Assembly (NCBI GenBank): GCA_944380305.1
Contig: CALWHF010000004.1
Coordinates: forward strand, 42,844-106,843
Direction of reading: 5' to 3'
Source of the DNA: an uncultured Christensenellaceae bacterium
GTDB lineage: Bacteria > Bacillota > Clostridia > Christensenellales > UBA3700
DNA: 64,000 nucleotides
Each line of letters starts with the position of its first letter. Positions within the stretch are counted from its first letter, which is position 1. Of the stretch, positions 8,342 through 55,362 are shown piece after piece. Below the pieces are notes generated by a model, which was given only the letters and a program-made list of their open reading frames with translations, did not search any database and was not told the DNA's origin. Made by a program: the position numbers and the translations under genes.

Positions 8342-9583
8342 ATGGAGCGTAACAAAGAAATCAATAAGTGTTCTTTCTGCGGCAGAGGCGAAGGCGAAGT
8401 CGAGAAGATATTTTCGGGGCCCAACGGCGTGAATATCTGTAACGAATGCGTCGAGTTCTGCTATGAGCTTATGGAGCAGGAGTTTACCTCTCCGATAGGC
8501 GGCGCAGAGAAGAAACACGCGATAAAAGTGCCCACGCCGCACGAGATAAAGGCTCAGCTCGACGAGTATATCGTCGGACAGGACCAGGCGAAAAAGGTTC
8601 TCTCGGTCGCGGTGTACAATCACTACAAGAGGCTGAATTGCGAGGCTAAAGGCGACGTGGAGCTCGAGAAGAGCAACGTGTTGCTGCTCGGTCCCACGGG
8701 CTGCGGCAAAACTTTGCTTGCGAGCACACTCGCAAAGATCCTCGACGTGCCGTTCGTGGTCGCGGACGCAACGTCTCTTACCGAGGCGGGTTACGTCGGC
8801 GAAGACGTCGAAAACATCCTGCTCAAGCTGATAAAGAAAGCCGATTACGACATCAAGCGCGCCGAAGTAGGCATAATCTATATCGACGAGATAGACAAGA
8901 TCGCAAAGAAGGGCGAGAACGTCTCGATAACCCGCGACGTTTCGGGCGAGGGCGTTCAGCAGGCACTCCTCAAGATAATCGAGAGTACCGTAGCGAACGT
9001 GCCGCCCAACGGAGGAAGAAAACATCCGCAACAGGAGTGTATACAGATCAATACGAGAAATATCCTGTTTATATGCGGAGGAGCTTTCGTCGGTCTCGAG
9101 AAGATAATCGAAAAGCGCATGCAGGGCGCGGCACTCGGTTTCGGTGCGGAGATCAAGAATACGAAGACTTCGACCTACGGCGAGATATGTAACGAGATAC
9201 GTCCCGACGACCTGATAAAATTCGGTCTGATACCCGAATTCGTCGGCAGACTTCCGGTAGTCGTATCGATCAACGCGCTCGACGAAAAGGCACTCGTCAG
9301 CATACTCAAAGAGCCTAAAAACGCATTGACAAAGCAGTATACTTCGATGTTTGCCGATGACGGGGTAGAGCTCGAATTCGAGGATGACGCGCTGTTTGAG
9401 ATAGCAGGCAAAGCCGTCAGGATGAAGACGGGAGCCCGCGGACTCAAGTCGATCATGGAAAATCTTATGCTTGACGTTATGTACGATGTCCCCAGCGACA
9501 AATCGATAGAAAAAGTCGTGATAACGGGCGATTGCGTACTCGGCAAAGAAAAACCCGTGATAATCCGCCGCAAAACGGCGTAA
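8342..9583 (+). CDS. clpX: ATP-dependent Clp protease ATP-binding subunit ClpX
   Basis: N-terminal Cys4 zinc finger (CSFCGR...CNEC), Walker A GPTGCGKT, Walker [10 protein letters not shown], and an IPEFVGRLP motif. Confidence 0.95.
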
Positions 9584-12487: not shown

Positions 12488-13198
12488 TCTGTCCGTAAGG
12501 ATTGCGATAAAATGTGATGCTCCCGACGATTTGAAAATAACCGACGTGAGGGGAGAGTCGGTTTGACGGTATTTATATTGATATTTAGCGCGCGTATATA
12601 TAAAGCGCGCGACGACGTTTTTAGACTACGAAAAATTTTACGCAAAATTTTATCGTATATTGTCGTATTTCTTCTCTAATTAAAAGAAAATTTCCTTCGA
12701 AAGAATTTCGTCGATAAGTTATTATTATCCGATGTTAAAAGTCTGTTCTCTTTGAAACGATGCACACGGCTCGGTGTGGTGTTCGCCGTTTTTTTGAGGC
12801 TTTTTATTTTGTCGGGAAAAAGGGGGCGGGCATCTCAAACAGAACCGTGTTTGAAAATCGCTATGTCTTAAAACAGTGTCGGGTTTAGTGTTTCGGGAAA
12901 TTGAAAACGGCAAAAAACGTATCGGAAACGCAATGAAAAAGGGAGATTTTTCCACGACTTGGGAAGAATCGGGAAAGAGTTTGAGAGTGCTTCGACCGAT
13001 GCGCGGCAAGTGCGACAGAAAAAGAGAGGAAACCGTATTGTTTACGCTTTGAAAACGCGGATATTTATAAAAACAGACCGCTATACGGGCGTGTCGGCAT
13101 GATCGGGGAAGAGCGTTTGCCGACGTGGCTTTTTTACACCTGCAAACTGTTATAGGAGCAAAATTATGGGAAATTCATGGGCGAAATTTCCACAAAAT

Positions 13199-13288
13199 GT
13201 AACAATTAGTAAATAATAGTAAAACATAGTAAATATAAGTAAAAATATGCAGCTGACAAGCAAGTAAAAACAAGTAAATTTTAGTAAA
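13199..13288 (+). repeat. 10-bp-phased array of eight (A/T)AGTAA(A) boxes
   Basis: GTAA starts at 13199, 13209, 13219, 13229 and 13239 (exact 10-bp phase). Further starts at 13264, 13274 and 13284 are also in 10-bp phase but offset by half a helical turn. Confidence 0.8.
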
Positions 13289-13312
13289 GATCAAAAAATC
13301 ATTTAATGCGAA

Positions 13313-13346
13313 CAAGTGTTTACATTTGCAAGTGGAAATTTGTGGA
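13313..13346 (+). promoter_or_regulatory. Candidate MraZ operator (GTG[G/T] boxes abutting the -35)
   Basis: caAGTGTt (13313-13320), caAGTGGa (13329-13336) and ttTGTGGa (13339-13346). The last two are 10 bp apart. They resemble published MraZ direct-repeat boxes (TGGGN in E. coli, AAAGTG[T/G] in mollicutes). Confidence 0.4.
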
Positions 13347-13353
13347 GATAATC

Positions 13354-13382
13354 TTGACATTCCTTTTTATACACGATAAAAT
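13354..13382 (+). promoter_or_regulatory. Sigma-A promoter of the dcw cluster (Pmra)
   Basis: TTGACA (13354-13359), 17-nt spacer, TAAAAT (13377-13382). An AAAGGAGGT Shine-Dalgarno and the mraZ start follow. Confidence 0.55.
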
Positions 13383-13416
13383 AAAAGTACAAATTCAGCA
13401 AAGGAGGTAATGCGCC

Positions 13417-13872
13417 ATGATGATGTCAGGTATGATAACGCTTCAGGTCGACCCGAAGGGCAGACTCAGAATACCGTCTAAGTACAGACCGTCTCTCGGC
13501 GAAGAAGGCAGCAAGATCTACGCAATGATCAACAGCAACGGCTGTCTGAACATTATCTCTCAGGAAAAGGCAAACGGCATAATCTCAAAACTCTCGTCGG
13601 TCGTTTCGATCGCGGTCACCGAAAAGTCCACCGCGGCGCGTCTGATACTCAGCAGCGTATGCGAGCTCACCGAGGACGGACAGGGCAGATTCACTTTGCC
13701 GCCTATGCTGAAGAAGTTTGCGGGCATATCCAAAAACGTCGTTTTCGCAGGTATGGGCAATTCGCTCGAACTGTGGGACGCGGATAAGTGGGAGGCTCTG
13801 CACAGCATCGTCAACGATCCCGACGAATTCCGTGCGGCGGTCGCAAGTCTCGAGGACATACTCAGTATATGA
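13417..13872 (+). CDS. mraZ: Transcriptional regulator MraZ
   Basis: Two SpoVT/AbrB-like halves: DPKGRLRIPSKYR and DGQGRFTLPPMLKKFAGI. First gene of the dcw cluster. Start could be 13417, 13420 or 13423. Confidence 0.9.
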   Translation: MMMSGMITLQVDPKGRLRIPSKYRPSLGEEGSKIYAMINSNGCLNIISQEKANGIISKLSSVVSIAVTEKSTAARLILSSVCELTEDGQGRFTLPPMLKKFAGISKNVVFAGMGNSLELWDADKWEALHSIVNDPDEFRAAVASLEDILSI

Positions 13873-14804
13873 CTCAATTCGCTCACACTCCGGTAATGCC
13901 GACAGAAGTCATCGAAGGGCTGAACGTAAAGCCGGACGGCATCTATCTCGATTGTACACTCGGCGGAGGCGGGCACAGCGAGCTGATACTGAAGAAACTC
14001 ACGACGGGCAGGCTTATCGCGACGGACAAGGACGAAGATGCGATCGCGTTCGCGAAAGAAAGGCTGAAGGAGTACGGCGACAAGATCATTTTCGTACACA
14101 GCGATTTCAAGAGAGCGGACAAAGTGCTCGACGATTTGAACATTGACAGAATAGACGGCGTGTTGATGGATCTCGGGGTATCCTCGTACCAGCTGGACGC
14201 CGCGGAAAGAGGTTTTTCCTACCGCTTTGACGCTCCGCTCGACATGAGAATGGACAAGACGCAGTTTCTTACGGCGTTCAACGTGGTAAACGAGTACAAC
14301 GAAATGGATATTGCTGATATTCTTTTCAGGTACGGAGAGGAAAGATACGCGAGGAAGATAGCGGCGAACATAATCCGTTACAGAGGCGAGCAGTCGATAA
14401 GAACGACGGGTCAGCTTGCCGAGATAGTGGAGAAGTCGTATCCGCCGAAGGAGCGATTCAAAGGCGGCAATCCCTGCAAGCGTACCTTCCAGGCGATCAG
14501 GATCGAAGTCAACGAAGAGCTCAAGGAGCTGGACGAGATAATCGGAAAGCTGGCGGAAAGACTGAATAAGGGCGGAAGGATATGCGTGATAACCTTCCAC
14601 TCGCTGGAGGACAGGATAGTAAAGAGAGAATTTCAGTATCTCGAAGCGAAATGCATTTGTCCTCCGAAACAGCCGATATGCACATGCAACAAAGTGCAGA
14701 CGGTCAGGATAATTACGAAAAAACCGATTACGGCAAGCGAAGAGGAGCTTGCGGTCAACCCGAGAGCGCAGAGTGCGAAGCTCAGAGTCGCGGAAAGGGT
14801 ATGA
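13869..14804 (+). CDS. rsmH: 16S rRNA (cytosine1402-N4)-methyltransferase RsmH
   Basis: HTPVM, DCTLGGGGHS, DLGVSSYQLD and SFHSLEDRIVK-like motifs. ATGA overlap with mraZ. Confidence 0.92.
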   Translation: MTQFAHTPVMPTEVIEGLNVKPDGIYLDCTLGGGGHSELILKKLTTGRLIATDKDEDAIAFAKERLKEYGDKIIFVHSDFKRADKVLDDLNIDRIDGVLMDLGVSSYQLDAAERGFSYRFDAPLDMRMDKTQFLTAFNVVNEYNEMDIADILFRYGEERYARKIAANIIRYRGEQSIRTTGQLAEIVEKSYPPKERFKGGNPCKRTFQAIRIEVNEELKELDEIIGKLAERLNKGGRICVITFHSLEDRIVKREFQYLEAKCICPPKQPICTCNKVQTVRIITKKPITASEEELAVNPRAQSAKLRVAERV

Positions 14805-14829
14805 ATAAACGGACGTTGGGGTGAATAGT

Positions 14830-15516
14830 ATGTTGAAAGAAAGGGAATTCAGACAAGAGACGATCGAAAGACCTGTGGACAACAGGTTCGGCGCGGGCTA
14901 TGCTCAGAACGGCGGCTACGGCTACTATGACGAGCAGCAGGGCTACGACGCTTACGAAAGATCGTATGAGGACAGAGGTTACGGCAACGCGTATCAGCAG
15001 AACGCGTATTACGACACGGCGGTAAGAGAATACCCCCGCGAGGACTTCGCTCGTCCCGAGGCGTTCCCCCGTTACGACGACTACACCGCGACGCAGAACG
15101 CTCCCTATCAGGAATGGCAGAGAAGCGGTTTCGACAGAACCGACGCATACGATTTCAATGCGGGATTCGCGGCTCCGCAGGCAACGACCTTCGAGCACGT
15201 CGAATACGAAACGAAGAAACGCGCAAAGCGCACTCTCAACGCAAAATCAAAAATGCTTATTGCCGTTTACTTCGTACTTGTAGCGGTAATCGCATCGTTG
15301 ATAATCGCCAACGTAGTGGCGTTCGGCGGCGGCAGCGTAGAGGCGCAGGCACCTACCGAGGCGACTTACAACGAAGAGGCTCTCAACATGGCGGTCACCG
15401 CTGACGGAAGCATAGTAGAGATGTCTGAAGTCAGATACCTCGAAGGATACGAATACGAGACGAGCACCAACTGGTTCGACAGTTTCTGCGACTGGGTTGC
15501 GAACGTCTCAAAATAA
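14830..15516 (+). CDS. Bitopic membrane protein in the ftsL position of the dcw cluster
   Basis: 228 aa from ATG 14830, with a GGGGTG Shine-Dalgarno 8 nt upstream. ~140-aa Y/G/Q/N/D/E-rich cytoplasmic region, one TM helix (MLIAVYFVLVAVIASLIIANVVAF) and a ~65-aa external tail. No clear FtsL coiled coil. Confidence 0.65.
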   Translation: MLKEREFRQETIERPVDNRFGAGYAQNGGYGYYDEQQGYDAYERSYEDRGYGNAYQQNAYYDTAVREYPREDFARPEAFPRYDDYTATQNAPYQEWQRSGFDRTDAYDFNAGFAAPQATTFEHVEYETKKRAKRTLNAKSKMLIAVYFVLVAVIASLIIANVVAFGGGSVEAQAPTEATYNEEALNMAVTADGSIVEMSEVRYLEGYEYETSTNWFDSFCDWVANVSK

Positions 15517-15580
15517 GACGAAACGGACACTAATCAAACCCGTCGGATACTCGAGACGATAACAAGCGGAGGGGTATTCG

Positions 15581-17476
15581 ATGCACAAAATTTCCCATAT
15601 CACACTAAAAAGAAAGCTACCTGCGGTACTAGCCCTGGTAGTCTTTCTTTTTTTATTGCTTGCAGGCAGGCTTTTTTATATACAGATCATCGACGGGATC
15701 GGACTTCAGACGCTCGCGCTCGGTCAATGGATGCGCGATCTTCCTTTCAGGGCGGAAAGAGGTGACATCGTGGACCGCAACGGCACGGTACTCGCGTCGT
15801 CTCAGACGTCGTATACGGTATACGTCCGTCCCAACGACCTGAAAGAACACGACAAAGTCGCGAAAGCGATCGCGTCTGCAACGGGCGCGGGCTTTGACGA
15901 GGTGTATAAAAAGGTGATAAAGAGCGGCGTATCCGAGGTCAGAGTCGCGACGGGACTCACGAAAAACGAGATGCTTGCGGTTTCGGCATACGGTTTCGAC
16001 GGCGTGTATTTCGCCGAGGATGCGACCAGATATTACAATTACGGCAATTTCGCGACCCAGCTCCTCGGGTTCACAAACGCGGACGGCGTGGGACAGAGCG
16101 GCATCGAGCAATATTACGACGTTTATCTCAAGGGGACGGACGGCGCGTCATATACGCAGACAGACCTGATAGGCAGAGAGCTCGACGACAACGTGACGAG
16201 CTATCTCGCGCCGATAAAGGGAATGACGGCAAAGCTGACTATCGATTTCAAATTGCAGAGTTTTGCCGAAAAAGCGGTGAACGACGCTGTTCTGACCTAT
16301 TCTCCGAGGTCTGCGTCCTGCCTGATGATGAACGCGTATACCGGCGAGATACTTGCAATGGCGAGCGCGCCGACGTTCGATCTCAACGATATTCCGAGAA
16401 ATGACTTGTCGCTGCTGCTGGCGGGAGCGAAAAATCTGCTTGTCACCGACGTTTACGAGCCGGGTTCGACGTTCAAGATACTGACGTCAGCGATAGGGAT
16501 AGGGACGGGCGTGATCAAGGACAGCTATTATTGCCCGGGGTATAAGGTCGTGGACGGTCAGCGGATAAAGTGCTGGAGAAGCATAGGTCACGGCTCGCAG
16601 GACTTTGCGCACGGCATAATGAATTCGTGCAACTGCGTATTCATGGACATAGCTCTCAGCGCGGGAACGGCGACGATGTACGACTATTTCGAAAAATTCG
16701 GTTTGATGAGAAAGACGGGCGTGGACATATCGGGCGAAGGCAAGGGTATCCTTCTCGCCGAAGAGAGCGTCAAGACGGTGGACATCGCCCGCATAGGTTT
16801 CGGTCAGGCAATAGCGGTGACGCCGCTCCAGCTTGCGACGGCGGTAGCCTCTGTCATAAACGGCGGAAAACTCGTCACTCCGTACGTTCTCGACAGCATT
16901 TACAGCGAGGACGGCAAACTTGCATACAGAAACACGCCCGTCGTAGTGAACACAACGGTGTCGGAAAGCACTTCGGCGGCAATGCGCGAATATCTTTACG
17001 GCGTCGTCGAAGAGGGCGGCGGAAAAAACGCGTACGTCGAAGGTTACAGGATAGGAGGAAAGACGGGGACGGCTCAGAAATACAAGGACGGCGCGATAGA
17101 CCGCGGCGCGTACGTCTCTTCGTTCATCGGTTTCACCGAGATAAACGGGGAGAGGATATTGTGTCTGATGATTGTGGACGAACCGCAGGGATACGTTTAT
17201 TACGGCAGCATAGTCGCCGCGCCGTACGTCGGGCAGATATTCAGGAGCACTTTCGCGTATTACGACGTCGCGCCCGCTCTTGACGCGGACGACGTTCCGA
17301 AAAAAGTCGTGATGCCCGACATATACGGACTTTCAGCGACTGCCGCCTGTGCCGCGATGAGAGAAAAAGGGCTGACCTACGAAGTGGCGGGAGAGGGAAA
17401 CAAGGTCGTTTACCAGTTCCCCGCGGAGGGTGCCGAGATAGACGAAAACACGGTGGTTTATTTCATGCTGGGCTGA
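15581..17476 (+). CDS. Class B penicillin-binding protein (FtsI/PBP2B/SpoVD-like) with one C-terminal PASTA domain
   Basis: N-terminal TM anchor, STFK (EPGSTFKILT), SxN (MNSCNC) and KTGT motifs. The C-terminal ~60 aa are PASTA-like. Confidence 0.9.
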   Translation: MHKISHITLKRKLPAVLALVVFLFLLLAGRLFYIQIIDGIGLQTLALGQWMRDLPFRAERGDIVDRNGTVLASSQTSYTVYVRPNDLKEHDKVAKAIASATGAGFDEVYKKVIKSGVSEVRVATGLTKNEMLAVSAYGFDGVYFAEDATRYYNYGNFATQLLGFTNADGVGQSGIEQYYDVYLKGTDGASYTQTDLIGRELDDNVTSYLAPIKGMTAKLTIDFKLQSFAEKAVNDAVLTYSPRSASCLMMNAYTGEILAMASAPTFDLNDIPRNDLSLLLAGAKNLLVTDVYEPGSTFKILTSAIGIGTGVIKDSYYCPGYKVVDGQRIKCWRSIGHGSQDFAHGIMNSCNCVFMDIALSAGTATMYDYFEKFGLMRKTGVDISGEGKGILLAEESVKTVDIARIGFGQAIAVTPLQLATAVASVINGGKLVTPYVLDSIYSEDGKLAYRNTPVVVNTTVSESTSAAMREYLYGVVEEGGGKNAYVEGYRIGGKTGTAQKYKDGAIDRGAYVSSFIGFTEINGERILCLMIVDEPQGYVYYGSIVAAPYVGQIFRSTFAYYDVAPALDADDVPKKVVMPDIYGLSATAACAAMREKGLTYEVAGEGNKVVYQFPAEGAEIDENTVVYFMLG

Positions 17477-17645
17477 GCCGCGCAATCCGAGCTTTTGCGA
17501 CAAAGACGGATATTTTCCGCGCATGCGGCAATAATCGGCAAAAGAGATAATTGCGGTGTTTTGTCGCGAAAGCGCGAATTTCGCCTGAGCAGGCACGCGA
17601 CGCGCAAAATATTATATTATTTAGAAAACTGATCGGAGGGACACT

Positions 17646-19079
17646 ATGAAATTATCCGAATTACTTGAGGGTGTAGCAGCGTCGGAGCCTTTCGGAGATA
17701 CCGAAATCGGCGGGGTAGCCATAAACAGCAAACAGGTGAAAGAAGGAGACCTCTTCGTATGTCTTCATGGGGTGAACGGAGACGGGCACTCGTATTGCGA
17801 CGAGGCGATCGCGGCAGGCGCGGCGGCGATAATATGCGAAAGGAACGTGGGCGCGAGATCGGTACCCGTGATAAAAGTGCCCGACACGAGACGGGCATAC
17901 GCGCTGATCGCGTCGAATTTTTACGGCAATCCGTCGCGCTCGATGCGGATAATCACAGTAACGGGAACAAACGGCAAATCCACTACCGCGTATCTTACGG
18001 CAAAACTTCTCGAAGCGGGAGGCTACCGCGTCGGTCTTATAGGTACGATGTATTACGAGTATGCGGGGAAGAAACTTCCGTCGACGCTGACGACTCCCGA
18101 CCCTATGCAGCTGCATTCTCTTCTCGCCGATATGAAAGCGGCGGGCGTTGAGTATGCGGTTATGGAGTTTTCGGCACACGCGATATATCTGAAAAAGCTG
18201 TGCGGGATATGCAGCGACGTATGTATTTTTACCAATCTTTCGCAGGATCATCTCGACTTTTTCGGAGATATGAAGAGATACAAAGCGGTCAAAAAAAGCT
18301 GTTTTACCGCCGAATACACCAGGTGCGCGCTCGTCAATGCCGACGATGCTTGCGGAAGAGAGATACTTTCGGAATGCAGAGTTCCCGTCGTGAGTTACGG
18401 GCTAGAAAACCCCGCGGACTGTTTCGCGATCGACGTCGAGGATACGAAGAGAGGATGTGCGTTCGTCGCGAATATTATGGACGATCTCGTCTCGGTGGAT
18501 TGCAGACTGTACGGCACTTTCAACGTTTACAACGTGCTCGCGGCATGCGCCGCGGCGCGTATGGCTGGCGTAGGACTCGGCGAGATAGCAGATTGTCTGT
18601 ACTCGCTCGATCCCCCGTCTGGCAGATTCAACGTGATAGAGTCGGGCGGCGTAAAATACGTCGTCGATTTCGCGCACACTCCCGACGGGCTTTACAATCT
18701 GCTCAAAGAGGGCAGAAAGATGTGCAAAGGCAGGCTCGTTACCGTCTTCGGTTGCGGCGGTGACCGCGACGTGTCGAAACGTCCGATCATGGGCAAGATA
18801 GCGGGCGAAATGTCTGACGTCGTGATAGTGACGAGCGACAATCCGCGTACCGAGAGCCGTCAGTCGATCGCCGACGATATACTTTCGGGCATAAGGAAGA
18901 AAAACAAACTCTACGTCGAACTCGACAGGAGCAGGGCGGTCGCTCTCGCCGTCGAACTGGCGAAAGAGGGGGACGTCGTGCTGATCGCGGGCAAAGGCAG
19001 CGAGGGGTATATCGACGAAAACAACGTGAAAACGCCTTACAGCGACAGCGTCCAGCTCGGCAAAGCTCTCGGAAGATAA
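17646..19079 (+). CDS. murE: UDP-MurNAc-L-Ala-D-Glu:meso-diaminopimelate ligase
   Basis: GTNGKSTT P-loop. A DNPR motif (TSDNPRTE) is typical of meso-DAP-adding MurE. Confidence 0.92.
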   Translation: MKLSELLEGVAASEPFGDTEIGGVAINSKQVKEGDLFVCLHGVNGDGHSYCDEAIAAGAAAIICERNVGARSVPVIKVPDTRRAYALIASNFYGNPSRSMRIITVTGTNGKSTTAYLTAKLLEAGGYRVGLIGTMYYEYAGKKLPSTLTTPDPMQLHSLLADMKAAGVEYAVMEFSAHAIYLKKLCGICSDVCIFTNLSQDHLDFFGDMKRYKAVKKSCFTAEYTRCALVNADDACGREILSECRVPVVSYGLENPADCFAIDVEDTKRGCAFVANIMDDLVSVDCRLYGTFNVYNVLAACAAARMAGVGLGEIADCLYSLDPPSGRFNVIESGGVKYVVDFAHTPDGLYNLLKEGRKMCKGRLVTVFGCGGDRDVSKRPIMGKIAGEMSDVVIVTSDNPRTESRQSIADDILSGIRKKNKLYVELDRSRAVALAVELAKEGDVVLIAGKGSEGYIDENNVKTPYSDSVQLGKALGR

Positions 19080-32251: not shown

Positions 32252-35200
32252 ATGTTTATTTACATTATCACCGCGCTCTGCGTACTTGCCGTGGTATGTC
32301 TCGGCGCGATAGTAGCGCAGTACGCGCGCAAGTTCGATTATGCCGGATACGTCGTCGGCGGAGACAAGACGACGAATATCAAGCAGCTCGCGATCGCTCT
32401 CAAAGACGTCGAAAAGGTCGGCTCGGTGCCCAACGTCGCCGCAATTCTCGGCAAGATACGCAAAGCGTATGCCGTCGTCAGACAAAAGGCGGAGAGAAAA
32501 GAGACTTTGCTCGAGTGCGAAAAATGGCTGCTCGAAAATTACCGCTCGGTCACCGCAGGGATAAAGAGGTCGGATTACACCGCGTTTGCCGCATTGCCGC
32601 ACAAGGGAGAGGCGAGGATACTGCACGTCGCGACGACGATCGCGGCGCAGAATTATTGCAGACTGGACGCAGATACCGTCGCGGGCGCGGTACACGAATT
32701 CTGCCGATACACACCGCTTTCGTATGACGAATTGAACGCTCTCGGAAAAGCGTTCGAAATCGCGCTTCTGCGGAAAATAGCTTTCGTCGCCGACAAGATC
32801 AGACTTCTCGGCAGAATGAAACGCCGTGCCGAAGAGGATAGGGAACCTGATGCGAAACTGGGCAAAAAAGAGGGATACCTCTATTATTACAGGGCGAGCG
32901 GCAAGAAGATCCCCGAAAAATATCTCGGCAAAACCGCGTCCGTCAACGCCGAAAACATAGAATTCGCTTTTGCAGGCGCAGCCTCGGATTATGCGAGACT
33001 GATAGCAAACGCGGTAACGTCGCTTAAAGGTCTGAGAGACTTTTTCACCCCTGCATTCAAAATATCGCTGTCAACTATAAACTCGTATTACGAAAGGGAT
33101 AAGTCGTACAGAGACAGCGATCCCGCGTCCAAAGAGCAGTACCTCGCGGCAACGGCAAAGCTCGCTGCCTACTTTTCGTCGGGAGAATATGCGGTCGCGA
33201 AAGGCGCGTTCGATCTTGCTGCGCGTTTCGACAAGCATTTCGGAGAGATAATTTTCGATCACAGATACGCGCTTGCGTCACATGTCAGAGGCAAGTACGT
33301 TGCCGCTCTCAAAAGGACTTCGTATAAGGCGGACAAGTGGGCATATTATGTCTCGGTTTTTCTGTTGCAGACCGTGTTTTCATTCGTATCGTGCGTGTTT
33401 TTGCCGATATTGTGGCTCAGGATCGCAGTGTTCTTCCTGACTTTTGTCGCGTGCTATCCGCCGTGCGCGTATATCGCCGAAAGATCGCTTTCGTTTGTGC
33501 TGCCAAAAAGACCTGTACCCAGAATGAATTACGATAAACTGCCTTTAGAAGGCGCGACGGCTGTCGTCGTGCCGATCTTCGTCACGTCTGAAAAGCAGGC
33601 AAGGAACGCCGTCGAAAACGTGCTCGCTATGCAGGCGGTGAACAGCGACGAAAACCTGACGTATTATCTTCTATGCGACCTGAAAGAGAGCGATTGCGAA
33701 AAAGACGTTTCCGATGACGGGATACTTTCGGCTATGGCGGAATTTTCGGGAAGAAAAAACTTCGTCGTGCTTGTCAGAAAGAGAGTTAAAACAGGCGAAA
33801 GGTACGGCGCGTACGAAAGAAAACGCGGAGCCGTGCGGGATTTCAACGAATACATGCTTACGGGCGACGATTCGAAATTCAGTTTCGTCTCTCGGAAAAG
33901 CGACGCGAAACCTAAGTTTGCTATGGTTCTCGACGATGACAGCCGATTGTCGGCAGGCGAAGTACTGACCGCCGTAAATACCGCGCTGCATCCGCTCAAC
34001 GCAAAATACGACGTGCTCGCTTTTTCGTCCGTTTATTCGCTAAAATCGCTGAAAACGCCTTATTCGAAAAAATACGTCGATTACTCCGGAATGCAATCGT
34101 ATTGCCATTATGACGACTTTTTTTACGACCTTTGCGCGCGATCGGTTTTTTGCGGGAAGGGAATATACCGCATTGAGGAATTTCATAAAAAGACTTCCGC
34201 GGCGGTTCCGGACGGCAAGGTGCTGAGTCACGACGTGCTCGAAGGCGCGCTTGCCGATACAGGTTCTCTCGACCTTGCAGTATCGGAAGACGCTCCCGAT
34301 TCGTTCGTCAGCGACGTTACCAGATCGAGAAGGTGGACGAGGGGAGACCTGCTTCTTTTGCCGTTTGCAGGCAAAAAGTACCGTTCGGACGGGATTTACG
34401 CATATATCGTGCTGAAAAACGTCTTTGCAATATTCGCGCCCGTATGTGCTCTCGTTTTATGGATTTTTACGTTAATTTTCGGCTATCCGTTGATGGGACT
34501 TGCCGTGTTTTTCGCAAGTTTTTCCATGCCCGCCGCGTCGCTCGCGGTTTCGGCGGTCAGCGCGAGAAACGTGAAGGCGTCGCGTAGTTTTTCAAAGATA
34601 TTTTCCACGGTGTCAAGAGCGGTCGCGGACGTATTGCTTTTGCCGTTTTACGCTGTCGACAACCTGCTCACCGCGGCTGGAACTTTTGTCGATTACGTTT
34701 TCAATTCGCGCGCGCTTCTGAGATGGAGACCGTTTTCGTCCACGCTAGGGCAGAAAGATTTTTACAGACACGCAGCGGCGGTCGCGCCGTCTTGCATATT
34801 CGCGGCTTTCGTTGCCGCGGCGTTTTATTTCAGCATACCGCTCGCGACGTATTTTCTCGCGTATATAGTCGCGGTCAATCTGCTGTATTTTGCGGGTAAA
34901 CAGTACAAAAAACGCCTTTTGCGCGAAGAAGAACGCAGAATTCTCACCGAATACGCGAAAGCTACTTACGGGTATTTCGCCGCATTCGATTATGAGTCGC
35001 TTCCTTGCGACAACGTACAGTACTATCCGCCAAACGGTTCCAGCGCAACGACCTCGCCTACCAATATCGGGTATTCTTTGCTCGCCGAGATATGCGCCTC
35101 AAAGCTGGGTTTCGAGACGCCGCTGAGAGCCCGTGCGAGGGTAGTTTCATTGCTGGACAAGGTTGATTCTCTGGACAAATGGAAAGGACATCTTTACAAC

Positions 35201-38200
35201 TGGTATGACGTAAACACGTCAAAACCCGTCGCGCCGCTTTTCGTGTCTTCGGCAGACAGCGGGAATTTAGTCGCCGCGCTTACAGTAACGCGAAGTTTTC
35301 TTGCCGAAAACGGCGACAAGTTCAATGCGTACAGGTGTAAAAAACTTATAGACGAAACGGATTTTTCCGCGCTGACAGACAGAGACAAAAACCAATTGTA
35401 TATCGGTTACGACGTCGGGAGCGGAAAATATTGCGGGCATTACGACATGATGGCGAGCGAGGCGAGACTTACCGTATACGGCGTATGTTGCAGATCGGGA
35501 GACCAATCGCTTTGGCGCGGACTTTCGCGTCGAATCGTAAATTCGCACGGCAACGTACTCGCGTCATGGTCGGGCACGGCGTTCGAGTATCTGATGCCGC
35601 AGCTCTTTTTGCCCGATTTCGAAGGGTCTCTTATAACTTCGAGCGTCAGAAGAGCGGTAAAAACGTATATTTCGAGAAAATGCAATTCGCTTTGGGGTGT
35701 CAGCGAAAGCGGATATTACGCTTTCGACGCAAACGCGAATTATCAGTACAAAGCGCACGGTCTCAGCGAACTTGCGCTGAGAAACGAGGACGACAGATGC
35801 GTTATCGCGCCATACGCAAGCGCGATGGCTGTGAAATATGCGCCGAAGAAGGTAGCGGACAACCTCGGCAAGCTTTCGCAATGCGGGGGCGCGTGCGAAT
35901 TCGGGTTTTACGAGGCGATTGATTTTTCATCGGGCAAAAACACTGTCGCTTCGTGCATGACTCACCATCAGGGAATGATACTTTGCGCGCTGACTAACGC
36001 ACTCGTCGACGACGCTATCGTCGGATATTTTATGCGGGACGATGCGATGCGAGGCGGGGAGCTTCTGCTTGCCGAGCCCGAAGATTATACGAAGGCGGCA
36101 AGGGAAAGAAAGCGGGATTTCGTTTACGACGACAGGAAGAAATCGTACGGCGAGGAGATCCCGTTGGGAGAATTTCCAGAGGTCTGTCTGCTGCACGGCA
36201 AGGAGTACAGCGTCGTCATAGACGATTACGGGTGCGGATACTCGCGCTGGCGGGACAGAGACGTCAACGTGTTTTCGCACGATTTTTACAAAAACAGCGG
36301 AGGATTCGGATATTTCGTCAGCGACGGCGAGATATTTTCGCCCACTTTCGCGCCGCTGAAAAAAGACGGCGGATCGTATAAAGCGCGCTTTTCGGACGAT
36401 AGTGCCGAATTTCAGAACGTAGGATCGAATTGCAGACTCAAAGTATACGCGCCTGCAGTAATAAGCGGCGAAGTGCGGGAATATACGGTTGAAAACAAGA
36501 GCGATTCGATGAAAAAATATGTTTTCGTCTTTGCCGAAAGGGCGGCTTTGAGCCGCAGGGACGAATACGCGGCTCACCCCGCTTTCTGCGACCTTTTCGT
36601 AAAAGCGGAATTCGATGCCGAAAAAAACACGGTATATCTAAAAAGAAAACCGAGAGAAAGCACGGGCGGGTTTACGCTTGCGGCGACGATGCTGTGTTCG
36701 AACGAAGTTTTCGCCGAATGCAACAGACTCAATCTGTATGGCAGGAACAGAGACGAGAGCAATCCCGCACTCGATTTCGGAGGCGACGCACCTTCTACGG
36801 GAGACGTTCTGTTTCCGGCTGTCGGATTGAAGTGCGAGTTCACACTCGCGCCGGGGCAGAGCGAGACGGTCGCCGTCGTGATACAGTGTTCGGATGACGA
36901 GGACGCTTTGAGATACAGAGTGGAACGGGTGCTCGGCACCGACTTTCTCGATTACGCCTGCAAGTCGGCATCTGGCGCGGAAAGCGTGATGTCAAAATAC
37001 CTGCCCGATCTTAAAACTGCACGCTATGCAGGGAAACTTGCCGCCAAACTGCTTTACGAACCGTATCCCTTATCCGCGCTAAAAGCGAGAGAGGCGGGGG
37101 CGTCGCAACTCGTTTTCAAAGAGAAAACTCTCGTTCTGAGATATGACGGCAATGCGGCTTTCACGAAAAAAGCGGTGCTGTCCGCGCTTGCTTGCCGACT
37201 TGCGGGAATAGACCTCAGACTGTTTATCGAATACGACGGAAACAAAACCGACGCGCTCGACGAGATCGCGGAAAGGTGCGGGGTAAAGGATATTGCGAGC
37301 CTGCCGTTCGTCACGGTATTCGACGTGAACGCGTATAAGCCGAGAGACGTAAAGAATTTCGAATCCACGGCTTTTTTCGTGATGAAAGAGCTCGAAGGAA
37401 ATATGTCAAAAGGCACGACTATCTCTGTCAGGAGAAGAAACGACGCGGCGTCGTTCGTGCAATGCGAATTGCCCGAAATATATCCTAGCGGAAACGGCGG
37501 CTTTGCAGACGGAGATTATGTCGTCACATCAGTGCCGTCCGCGCCTTATTCCAACGTGGCGTCGGGGAGAAACGGCGGTTTCGTCGCGACCGAGAACGGC
37601 GGCGGATATGCCTATTTTCTCAATAGCAGGGAGAATAAGCTGTCGGGTTGGAGCAACGATCCCGTCGCGGATCCGCCGTTCGACAGAGTGCTGGTTTCAG
37701 ACGGCGACGGAGTGATCAGGATAAACAGGCTCAACGAAGGAGGTTACGTCAGACACGGCGAAGGTCGCTCAGTATACAAGTGCAGAACGTGGCGCGCGGA
37801 TTACGATCTGAAGAAAAGCGTGCTTGCCGACGGTAGGATCATCGCTACGACGGTCAGGATAGAAAATCACGATGACAATGAGCTGTCGCTATCGGTGATA
37901 TATCTTGTCGATCCTTGTGCGGACGTCTGCGAAAACAGAGCCGATGTCTATTGCGAAAAGCACGGAAAGGACTCCGTCAGGATCGTCAACGTCAGGACGG
38001 GCAGGTCGTATTATCTGTATGCCGAAAACGCGTACGAGCTTATCACGGACAAGATACAGGCGGTCTCGAGGGGGGTAAACGGATATAATCCCAAGCGCGG
38101 AGAAAGCGCGTTCAACAATCCGCTCGCAGGTGCGGAGGTCAGGATAAGGCTGAAGAAACACGAGTCGGCGACGGTCGAATTCGCGTTGTGTGACGAGAAA

Positions 38201-52969: not shown

Positions 52970-53122
52970 TCACGATTTGTTATAATTTTGTCGAATTATT
53001 ATAAAAATCGACTTAATTTAGAAGTTAAAGGTCAAATTTCAGCCAATATATTGCTGAATATCCAGCCTTAACAATATAAAACCACCGTGCCGAGCAACGG
53101 CGCAAACGAGCGGAATACCGAA

Positions 53123-54709
53123 ATGGCAGACACCAAAGATACCGAAAAGACAGGACAAAAGACAGATTTCATAAAGCTGCTCAATATTCGCTTTGACGGA
53201 GCGTACGACTTTCTGCGCGTGCGTTCGGTCGATCTCGATCTCGAACAGAAGACCGTCAGCGTTCAGATAGGTCTGCCGTACAGCGGAGAGAATACGCTTA
53301 CGGAAGAAGACAAAAGGAAGATATTATCGTTTGCCGTTGAGATATTGCCTTCGGAATACACGGTTTCGGTCAATTACAGAAAGTTCGGCGTCGATCCCGA
53401 GATAGTGTTCAAACTGGTAAAAGAGTACGTCAACAAGTATCACAGGGCGTATTCGGTTCTCATTTCAAGCGACAACGTGGATATAACGTGCACGGATACC
53501 GTCGTGACGGTAAAGATAACCGTCGTAAAGTCGGTCGCCGATCTGTTCGAAAAATGCGGACTCACTAAAGGACTGGAAGAATACCTCGATTCGTCGTACG
53601 ACAGAAAGAACGTCGTAAAGACAGAGTATACCGACAAACTGATCATTTCGGAGACCGCAAAGGAAGAAGTGCCTGTCGTGATCGACGATTGCTACATAGA
53701 GATAAGCGCGCTGCACAAACTGTGCGGGGGCGAGATCACTTCGAAAGCGCGCTATATAAGGGCATGCACCTCGCCTCAGAGTGCCGTATGCGTAACGGGA
53801 AAGGTCGAGAGCATCGTCGCGAGAAATTCGAAGACGTCGGGCAATCTCTATTACAATTTTACGATAAACGACACGACGGGGGCGATGAAGTGCTGTTACT
53901 TTACGAGAAAAGCCGCAAAAGGTCCGCTCGATATTCTCGAGGAAGGCGCGGAGATCGCGGTCGTCGGGGATCTTCAGACGGACAGTTTCCGCGGAGGACT
54001 CAATCTGATTGCGAAGAGCGTGAGTCTTTGCAGGATCAATTACTCGTCGATACTGACCGAGGAAGACCTGCGCCGCAAAAAAACATACGTTCCCGTAAAG
54101 GCAAAGCCTCTTGACATTACCACTCAGCAGGATATATTCGACATCGCGAGCGAAAAACCCGCATATCTCACGGATAACGACTTTGTCGTTTTCGACCTAG
54201 AGACCACGGGGCTTCTCGACAACGGTGTACCTTGCAAGATTATCGAGATAGGCGCGGTCAAGATAAAGAACGGCGTCTGCACCGAATATTTTTCCACGCT
54301 CGTAGACCCGAGAATGCATATTCCCGAAGGAGCGTCGGCGACCAATCATATATACGACGACATGGTCGAGGACGCGCCGTATATCGAGGACATTCTCCCC
54401 GATTTTCTCGCGTGGGTCGGGAATGCGACGCTTGTTGCTCACAACGGCAACAAATTCGACTTTATCGTACTGAAAAACGAGGCGGCGGAGCAGAATATGG
54501 TCGTACCGAATCGGACGAAAGACACGATCGTCATCGCCCAGGCGTACAGAGACAGGACGGGAAAGCGCGGGCAGCTCAATCTGCGCGTGCTTTGCAAGGA
54601 GTTCAATATCGAACTGGTAGAAGCGCACCGCGCGTATTACGACGCATACGCTACCGCGCAACTGTTCATCAGGCTGTGCGATTACGTTGACGTGTCGAGG
54701 ATAGGCTGA
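53123..54709 (+). CDS. PolC-like N-terminal domain + OB fold + DEDDh 3'-5' exonuclease, lacking PHP and polymerase domains
   Basis: 529 aa from ATG 53123 (alternative GTG at 53087). The OB-like segment VCVTGKVESIVARNSKTSGNLYYNFTINDTTGAMKCCYF...VVGDLQTDSFRGGLNLIAKSV parallels the B. subtilis PolC OB domain. Exo motifs FDLETTG, AHNGNKFDF and HRAYYDAYATAQL are present. Confidence 0.75.
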   Translation: MADTKDTEKTGQKTDFIKLLNIRFDGAYDFLRVRSVDLDLEQKTVSVQIGLPYSGENTLTEEDKRKILSFAVEILPSEYTVSVNYRKFGVDPEIVFKLVKEYVNKYHRAYSVLISSDNVDITCTDTVVTVKITVVKSVADLFEKCGLTKGLEEYLDSSYDRKNVVKTEYTDKLIISETAKEEVPVVIDDCYIEISALHKLCGGEITSKARYIRACTSPQSAVCVTGKVESIVARNSKTSGNLYYNFTINDTTGAMKCCYFTRKAAKGPLDILEEGAEIAVVGDLQTDSFRGGLNLIAKSVSLCRINYSSILTEEDLRRKKTYVPVKAKPLDITTQQDIFDIASEKPAYLTDNDFVVFDLETTGLLDNGVPCKIIEIGAVKIKNGVCTEYFSTLVDPRMHIPEGASATNHIYDDMVEDAPYIEDILPDFLAWVGNATLVAHNGNKFDFIVLKNEAAEQNMVVPNRTKDTIVIAQAYRDRTGKRGQLNLRVLCKEFNIELVEAHRAYYDAYATAQLFIRLCDYVDVSRIG

Positions 54710-54799
54710 CGGGCAGGGCCGTTTTTTAGTAAAACGGGCGTTTCCGAACAAAAATATTTCACATTTGTGCATTTTTTTGAATAAACTCGGAAAAAAGTG

Positions 54800-54894: not shown

Positions 54895-55362
54895 ATGCCC
54901 AAGATTTGCGACTCGGTACAGGCACTTATAACGCCTATCCTCGAAAAAATGAATATCGAACTCGTCGAGGTCGAATACAAGAAACGCGGCGAAAACGACG
55001 GCAGTCTGACGATCTATATCGACAAGGACGGCGGGGTATCGCTCGACGATTGCGAGGCGGTGCACAACGCCATAGACGCGCCGCTCGACGAACTCGATCC
55101 GACGGCGGGCAAGCCGTACACTCTCAACGTCTCGTCTCCCGGTCTCGACAGACCTTTCAGGACTCTGAGGGATTATCGCAAACATCTCGGAGAGGAGATC
55201 GAGATCTCTCTGTACAAACCCGTTGACGGCAAAAAGAAATTCGAGGCGGTCCTCGAAGACGTTGACGACGCTCTCACGGTGGCGACCGTGAGCATAGACG
55301 GAAAAACCATACAACTTAATATAAAAGAGATAGCCCTCGCGAGAGCGGTTATCAAATTCTAG
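54895..55362 (+). CDS. rimP: Ribosome maturation factor RimP
   Basis: 155 aa with LEVSSPGLDRPL-like VSSPGLDRPF. Immediately upstream of nusA. Confidence 0.9.
   Translation: MPKICDSVQALITPILEKMNIELVEVEYKKRGENDGSLTIYIDKDGGVSLDDCEAVHNAIDAPLDELDPTAGKPYTLNVSSPGLDRPFRTLRDYRKHLGEEIEISLYKPVDGKKKFEAVLEDVDDALTVATVSIDGKTIQLNIKEIALARAVIKF

Follow-up and report, generated by a model that had tools for sequence, protein, structure and literature searches.

The E. coli-type epsilon subunit, DnaQ, is a free-standing DEDDh exonuclease of the DnaQ superfamily. It carries a clamp-binding motif after and beside its exonuclease domain and serves the DnaE1 polymerase. In PolC, the exonuclease is inserted inside the PHP domain. 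The consensus of beta-clamp-binding motifs is QL[SD]LF, more generally QxxLF, with positions 1, 4 and 5 being decisive, and PolC carries QLSLF at its C-terminus (PMC3919608; PMC12309361). The PolC exonuclease of B. subtilis proofreads DnaE errors in trans, in a complex of template, DnaE and PolC, and a polymerase-dead PolC still does so (PMC5627055). Replicase surveys sort genomes into those with DnaE1 only, with PolC and DnaE1, and with PolC and DnaE3, and set aside PolC-like fragments that have no polymerase site (PMC3919608; PMC12926913). The stretch analysed here, referred to as the window, comprises 64,000 nucleotides (nt) of an uncultured Christensenellaceae bacterium (assembly GCA_944380305.1, contig CALWHF010000004.1, positions 42,844 to 106,843). 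At the ancestral polC locus it carries a gene, called here mini-PolC, whose product of 528 amino acids (aa) combines counterparts of the PolC N-terminal domain, OB fold and exonuclease without a polymerase. Its parts are the following (window positions):

53123..54709, + strand: mini-PolC gene, 528 aa, stop codon at 54707-54709 (open reading frame (ORF) translation, conserved ATG, PolC profile match)
53123..53692, + strand: N-terminal domain, aa 1-190, homologue of the PolC N-terminal domain, two alpha/beta subdomains, aa 1-12 disordered
53693..54037, + strand: OB fold, aa 191-305, homologue of the PolC OB
54038..54178, + strand: flexible linker, aa 306-352, in place of the N-terminal half of the PolC PHP
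54125..54142, + strand: QQDIFD motif, aa 335-340, pattern Q-x-[DNS]-[LIMFV]-[FL]-[DE], candidate beta-clamp-binding motif
54179..54706, + strand: DEDDh 3'-5' exonuclease of PolC type, aa 353-528, with D358, E360, D446, H502 and D507

Profile comparisons indicate that mini-PolC is a descendant of PolC. A profile of 54 family members aligns collinearly with 23 full-length clostridial PolCs (hhalign, 100% probability, E 6.8e-75), aa 14-515 of mini-PolC corresponding to 20-628 of PolC. The similarity is retained by the domains taken one by one. The N-terminal domain alone matches its PolC counterpart over 140 collinear columns with 93% probability and E 2.6e-7, while reversed and shuffled controls score at most 24.6 with E of at least 0.027. 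None of the 54 members matches the Pfam families of the PolC N-terminal domain (NI/NII). In the AlphaFold2 (AF2) model, this region has an alpha-beta-beta-alpha-beta unit followed by an alpha-beta-beta-alpha-alpha-beta unit, which fits the two KH-like subdomains of PolC. This fold was compared by topology only, the PolC models in the PDB being without the N-terminal domain. The OB fold is recognized by Pfam (tRNA_anti_2, aa 209-300, 8e-7) and, in PDB profiles, by the PolC OB of 3f2b (2e-7). Taken alone it aligns with PolC columns 249-358 (E 5e-13) and superposes on 3f2c with a root-mean-square deviation of 1.7 A over 93 columns (Foldseek). The initial annotation, made from the sequence alone, had proposed that the first 330 aa resemble PolC and had placed an OB segment at nt ~53785-54030; both proposals are borne out by these matches.

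The exonuclease motifs also lie where they had been reported: FDLETTG from nt 54191 (F357-G363), AHNGNKFDF at aa 439-447, and HRAYYDA, which includes H502, from nt 54626. The DEDDh residues are conserved in all 54 members, D507 being present in 53. The domain matches Pfam RNase_T (PF00929) over aa 355-515 (4e-27, 96 bits for a cut-off of 24) and passes the DnaQ-superfamily domain model TIGR00573 (93.6 bits for a cut-off of 71.5). The Pfam model of Rv2179c-like exoribonucleases also matches. Against PDB profiles, the best scores are those of PolC exonucleases (212 and 175 bits), ahead of DinG (133), DnaQ (128) and epsilon (110), and the exonucleases of the family are 38-50% identical to that of a Petroclostridium PolC. 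For the complete AF2 model (mean pLDDT 87), the top structural match is PolC 9QPC (E 5e-17, 399 columns). The phylogeny of the exonuclease domain suggested by the initial annotation was built by neighbour-joining (NJ) from 134 sequences. PolC forms one clade and the short proteins are split into groups of 78 and 11. The internal branches measure 0.003-0.03, and the tree was judged too poorly resolved to be used for the question of origin. A stand-alone PolC-like exonuclease of 246 aa from a Lachnospiraceae metagenome-assembled genome (MAG; L081 9959-10699) groups with the short family in this tree.

Large parts of PolC are gone from mini-PolC: both PHP halves, the palm, thumb and fingers, the (HhH)2 domain and the C-terminal QLSLF. 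Consequently the protein cannot polymerise. PHP-N (KRVELHxHT...DHG...) is replaced by the linker, in which the initial annotation had rightly seen no His-rich PHP motif. The length of this linker is about 47 aa rather than the ~55 aa first given. Nothing polymerase-like follows the exonuclease, as had been noticed: the ORF ends a few residues past the last exonuclease helix (H504-519 of 528 aa) and its C-terminus reads ...DYVDVSRIG, while the clostridial PolC consensus ends in NQLSLFD. No coding sequence for a polymerase or PHP was found in the window, in about 40 carrier loci (+-10 kb) or in the 10 kb beyond each window end. In this search area, the PHP-N hidden Markov model (HMM) had no match in the window or the carrier loci, and tblastn with four PolCs together with a PolC-core HMM found only exonuclease and OB. 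The best NCBIfam match is nevertheless PolC (NF001688), with 144 bits for a cut-off of 873; TIGR01405 gives 123 for 1043. Having neither PHP nor polymerase core, and scoring far below the cut-off, mini-PolC is not a member of the PolC family proper.

The genomic location tells the same origin. Upstream, the gene order is rpsB-tsf-pyrH-frr-uppS-cdsA-dxr-rseP-ispG, followed by the mini-PolC ORF; downstream it is rimP-nusA-ylxR-(L7Ae-like)-infB-rbfA-nrnA-truB, rimP starting at 54895, 185 bp after the end of mini-PolC. The synteny first described holds for uppS-cdsA-dxr-rseP and for rimP-nusA-infB; the adjoining upstream gene is ispG, as in the clostridial arrangement, and not proS. In about 38 carrier loci the gene directly follows ispG or rseP, and in some 30 of these the distance to the downstream rimP-nusA-infB is 110-400 bp. 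At a few loci an insert of 3.5-8 kb separates mini-PolC from rimP, and in one the gene is inverted. The same slot holds a full-length polC in the genomes examined with Lachnospiraceae, Peptostreptococcaceae, Clostridiaceae and Eubacteriales labels. The locus is therefore the ancestral polC position, as initially proposed, and the mini-PolC gene is the positional orthologue of polC.

The inverted copy, on an 828-kb Christensenellaceae contig (L001 10001-11569), is opposite in orientation to all of its neighbours and still stands between rseP and rimP. Inserts were seen in several other genomes (L002 11591-17512; L006, L019 and L032); an example comprises a 1212-aa protein with Flg_new repeats together with alr-like, lspA and rluD genes. 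For one family member at the polC locus (L075 5523-7361) the reading frame is open further upstream, and the genome scan also gave a 481-aa exonuclease-bearing ORF (L070 9668-11113) outside the polC locus.

A misassembly between 52.9 and 54.9 kb, a concern raised at the outset, is excluded: an identical protein stands between ispG and rimP in an independent Logan assembly (SRR30169963), and a near-identical arrangement is found on ENA contigs of 56-216 kb. Together with about 37 species-level MAGs that have no full polC there, these assemblies bear out the short gene at the polC locus. Among 5.8 billion proteins, a word-indexed search found 322 matches. The best 120 of these are almost all 500-560 aa long (two are partial), with the same domains, down to 26% identity. 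When 1.84 billion cluster representatives were searched exhaustively with a profile, the best 150 matches were all 493-566 aa long and nearly all aligned end to end (E < 1e-128), so that the family, clustered at 50% identity, includes at least 150 clusters. The lengths found in species-representative genomes are bimodal, about 510 and about 1450 aa: a gene of 505-550 aa in about 37 MAGs, the remaining matches being PolCs of 1430-1650 aa. The carrier MAGs are labelled uncultured Clostridia, Christensenellaceae or Candidatus Scatosoma and come from the guts of humans, mice, rabbits, sheep, goats, deer and chickens; no cultured carrier was seen among the matches listed. The phage collection gave exonuclease-domain matches only, no record covering 80% of mini-PolC.

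Members of the family are named in databases "hypothetical protein", "exonuclease domain-containing protein" or "DNA polymerase III epsilon subunit family exonuclease". The initial annotation had considered that they could be a common, already annotated exonuclease unrelated to PolC. The family is indeed common, but its names are generic and its homology to PolC is given by the above matches. mini-PolC is a conserved, unnamed, polymerase-less PolC derivative, widespread in uncultured gut Clostridia.

NusA, IspG and InfB of the window share about 50% identity with those of other carriers, a distance close to that from PolC-bearing families, while mini-PolC is 25-37% identical over the best-matching segment and 26-31% over its full length (protein search). 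The family is thus old and evolves faster than its neighbours. Compared with relatives of 82-85% identity, pN is 0.05-0.17 and pS 0.6-0.9 (saturated). In each of the four parts (N-terminal domain, OB, linker and exonuclease) the dN/dS ratio does not exceed about 0.1, in the same range as for ispG, rseP and rimP, indicating that the gene is functional and under purifying selection in every part.

How does mini-PolC compare with the described systems? With PolC (NF001688/TIGR01405; 3F2B, 9QPC) it shares the locus, the collinear homologous N-terminal domain, OB and DEDDh exonuclease, and a QxxLF-type motif; this clamp-like motif is located in the linker between OB and exonuclease whereas that of PolC is C-terminal. 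Like the epsilon subunit (TIGR01406; 1J53, 5FKU), it is a free-standing DEDDh exonuclease of the DnaQ superfamily. However, the identity is only ~25%, the N-terminal domain and OB add about 350 residues ahead of the exonuclease, and mini-PolC is devoid of the C-terminal alpha(PHP)-binding segment, nothing extending past the exonuclease fold. The motif precedes the exonuclease in mini-PolC and follows it in epsilon. The epsilon equivalog models are missed (TIGR01406, 72.9 for 222.7 bits; NF004316, 68.7 for 196 bits), and mini-PolC, although of the DnaQ superfamily, is no epsilon orthologue. Exo-less PolCs (NTD-OB-PHP-POL3-HhH, NTD being the N-terminal domain), found in some Clostridia and Negativicutes, likewise illustrate that PolC modules can be lost separately within the class (PMC3919608). 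Their architecture is the converse, with the polymerase kept and the exonuclease lost, and they are not complementary to mini-PolC because both keep the N-terminal domain and OB. Among solved exonuclease domains, the nearest is the stand-alone PolC-type exonuclease of Thermotoga maritima (2P1J, 212 bits). Unlike mini-PolC, this protein consists of the exonuclease only, DnaQ-DinG fusions (8ZEF) are joined to a helicase, and both are without the PolC N-terminal domain and OB.

The linker is the part of mini-PolC without a recognizable PolC counterpart: taken alone, it gave no significant match with PolC (hhalign). In the AF2 model it is mostly coil (pLDDT 64-83). Its columns are variable (~3 bits) among the 54 members, except for Y322-x2-[VI]-x-P (Y322, [VI]325 and P327) and for the Q-motif, which is located 19-21 residues before Exo I in most of them. 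This motif includes Q in 41 members, [NSD] in 47, [LFVIM] and [FL] in all 54 and [DE] in 39. The Q is replaced in two sub-clades, which read K-[VI]-[KSN]-S-[VI]-F-D and M-S-E-S-L-L-D (groups P0017-P0023 and P0086-P0120; L010, L022 and L042) and keep the hydrophobic pair and the acidic residue. They may represent weakened clamp motifs or may hint at another role of the motif. Full-length PolCs are without such a motif at the corresponding place ahead of Exo I. The initial annotation, which had not noticed the motif, had offered two readings, a domain-deleted paralogue left after polC moved or a free-standing factor derived from PolC. From its residue pattern, the linker motif resembles beta-clamp-binding motifs, which favours the reading of mini-PolC as a free-standing replisome factor.

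On balance, and with moderate confidence, we propose that mini-PolC acts as a PolC-derived, clamp-tethered 3'-5' exonuclease that would proofread for a DnaE-type replicase in trans. The QxxLF-like motif of the flexible linker would tether the protein to the beta sliding clamp. Single-stranded template or replisome partners would be held by the OB fold, perhaps with help from the N-terminal domain, and the exonuclease would remove the misincorporated 3' ends left by the DnaE-type polymerase. mini-PolC would correspond to a natural polymerase-dead PolC keeping the trans-proofreading role of B. subtilis PolC on DnaE products. The polymerase-dead B. subtilis protein, whose exonuclease clears DnaE errors without a polymerase of its own (PMC5627055), shares this proposed function; it is, however, an engineered full-length mutant, while mini-PolC is physically without polymerase and its partner would be DnaE1 rather than DnaE3. 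The most likely background is that the lineage would have dropped PolC as a polymerase and would replicate with DnaE1 alone. In the most economical history, the PolC polymerase would have been lost in situ while the editing module was kept. The DnaE1 of Clostridia shows the features of a replicase that is sufficient by itself, and some members of the class are DnaE1-only (PMC3919608). The complete scenario, in which a large, deep clade of uncultured gut Clostridia abandoned the PolC polymerase, became DnaE1-only and turned the PolC N-terminal domain, OB and exonuclease into a clamp-tethered proofreading subunit, is possible and is put forward more tentatively than the proofreading role itself.

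Several points weigh against this proposal. Clostridial DnaE1 usually has an intact PHP proofreader (PMC3919608) and a second one may be superfluous. The LF of the linker motif could serve to pack the linker against a domain rather than to bind the clamp. Moreover, hhalign sets the linker opposite PHP-N, although not significantly, and its conservation could be partly vestigial. The poor resolution of the exonuclease tree means that it provides no proof of a single origin. Finally, since the polymerase search covered the carrier loci, the window and the 10 kb beyond each of its ends, a full-length or Exo-less polC may lie elsewhere in the genome.

That last point leads to an alternative which we regard as unlikely: mini-PolC could be an accessory paralogue, trimmed at the old locus after a duplication, with a complete or Exo-less (NTD-OB-PHP-Pol) polC elsewhere, and could serve in repair, Okazaki-fragment processing or back-up proofreading. 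Exo-less PolCs do exist, only in Clostridia and Negativicutes, and rare genomes hold two PolCs (PMC3919608); the clamp motif is typical of repair factors as well (PMC12309361); and the polymerase search covered the carrier loci and the window surroundings. However, the other Clostridia examined keep polC at this locus, so that any second copy would need to be old and to have persisted throughout a very deep clade, and an Exo-less PolC, which keeps the N-terminal domain and OB, would be duplicated rather than complemented by mini-PolC. No second, PolC-type locus from any of the ~37 carrier assemblies was present among the best 80 matches of the genome scan, which is weak evidence as the search patterns were narrow. 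A split PolC, whose PHP-polymerase part would be encoded elsewhere and reassemble with mini-PolC into a two-subunit enzyme, is very improbable. The missing parts must indeed come from some polymerase, and the N-terminal domain, OB and exonuclease were kept together. Nevertheless, as the PolC exonuclease sits within PHP, simple fission cannot yield mini-PolC; this takes two separate deletions, and PHP-N has been lost rather than moved. In addition, a partner gene is adjacent in none of the ~40 loci, and a survey of ~2000 genomes lists no PHP-POL3-HhH-only PolC as the main copy.

mini-PolC could also have left the replisome, its KH-like, OB and DEDDh modules processing RNA or other DNA ends, for instance in a 3' trimming tied to the adjoining ribosome-maturation operon. 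KH-like and OB modules are common RNA binders, the RNase_T and Rv2179c-like exoribonuclease models match, the gene adjoins rimP-nusA-infB-rbfA-nrnA-truB, and it evolves faster than its neighbours, with 27-33% identity in the family and ~50% for NusA and IspG. This neighbourhood was, however, inherited from polC and a terminator-like site separates the gene from rimP. The exonuclease is still closest to PolC proofreading domains, and a QxxLF motif is unexpected in an RNA-processing enzyme. Such a neofunctionalised nuclease appears slightly less probable than an accessory paralogue. Nothing other than the unexpected length would suggest an assembly artefact or a decaying pseudogene. This is refuted by the identical protein in independent assemblies, the uniform length across at least 150 clusters, the intact catalytic residues and dN/dS values of at most about 0.1 in all domains, and its probability is negligible. 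The overall reading of the initial annotation, a PolC-derived N-terminal domain, OB and exonuclease without polymerase at the polC locus, is in turn supported by the profile, locus and assembly evidence.

The start codon, initially considered uncertain between ATG 53123 and GTG 53087, can be assigned to ATG 53123. The open frame reaches back to GTG 53087, but this extension is not conserved in two relatives of 82-85% identity, in which the ATG is at the identical position, and GTG 53087 was ruled out. The ATG start gives 528 aa, in agreement with independent gene calls, and not the 529 aa of the initial annotation. Two further elements flank the gene:

52993..53023, + strand: AT-rich element GAATTATTATAAAAATCGACTTAATTTAGAA, 31 nt, about 100 nt upstream of the ATG
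54708..54733, + strand: terminator-like hairpin and T-run between the mini-PolC stop and rimP (consensus scan only)

GAATTATTATAAAAATCGACTTAATTTAGAA is almost invariant in three species with saturated synonymous sites, while the remaining spacer has diverged. It is not an obvious LexA or DnaA box, and Rfam matched nothing in the mini-PolC gene and its flanks, including this element. Its conservation suggests that it may be a promoter, operator or leader. Inside the gene, a near-perfect sigma-70-like promoter match (TTGACA-16-TATATT, 11/12) at 54111-54138 shares positions with the codons for the linker motif and has probably arisen by chance. An exonuclease-only isoform expressed from this site was considered and is unlikely, because there is no in-frame start codon between the site and Exo I.

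Other genes of the region were recorded in passing. An MgsA/RarA-type AAA+ ATPase (replication-associated recombination protein A) is encoded at 39795-41123, ~12 kb upstream of mini-PolC. A 2496-aa ORF at 32252-39742, with GH94 catalytic, GH94 supersandwich and glucoamylase-like domains, has the appearance of a very large glycan phosphorylase or cyclic beta-1,2-glucan synthase. Neither of the contigs that extend the window (L087 and L089) has a polymerase gene in the extension. L089 carries a gene for a 215-aa SSB upstream of the 5' end (8436-9083), and L087 carries a complete spoIIIA operon (AA-AH; 13150-17895), ~3-8 kb past the 3' end, so that the bacterium probably forms spores.

A polymerase-less PolC family is not described in two large surveys of C-family polymerases, and a literature search (PolC or DNA polymerase III with names beginning in Christensenell, and polymerase-less PolC) returned no relevant description. 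The earlier survey explicitly removed fragments without a polymerase active site (PMC3919608), a filter that the family does not pass. Conversely, one 498-aa member (P0026) is labelled "DNA polymerase-3 subunit alpha (Gram-positive type)" in IMG, so that annotation-based surveys may wrongly score such genomes as PolC-positive. The distinction has a practical side. PolC inhibitors in clinical development are justified by their sparing of PolC-less organisms (PMC12592400), and the gut commensals that carry mini-PolC may fall in the spared group; if DnaE1-only, they would be without the target of PolC-directed antibiotics such as ibezapolstat.

If the complete scenario is correct, a free-standing Pol III proofreader would have arisen a second time, independently, mini-PolC being an analogue of epsilon derived from a replicative polymerase, and its carriers would be a living intermediate of the transition from PolC plus DnaE1 to DnaE1 only. 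Should these carriers prove to be DnaE1-only, the family would document the reduction of a two-polymerase replisome to one, in which the proofreading module, and not the polymerase, was worth keeping.

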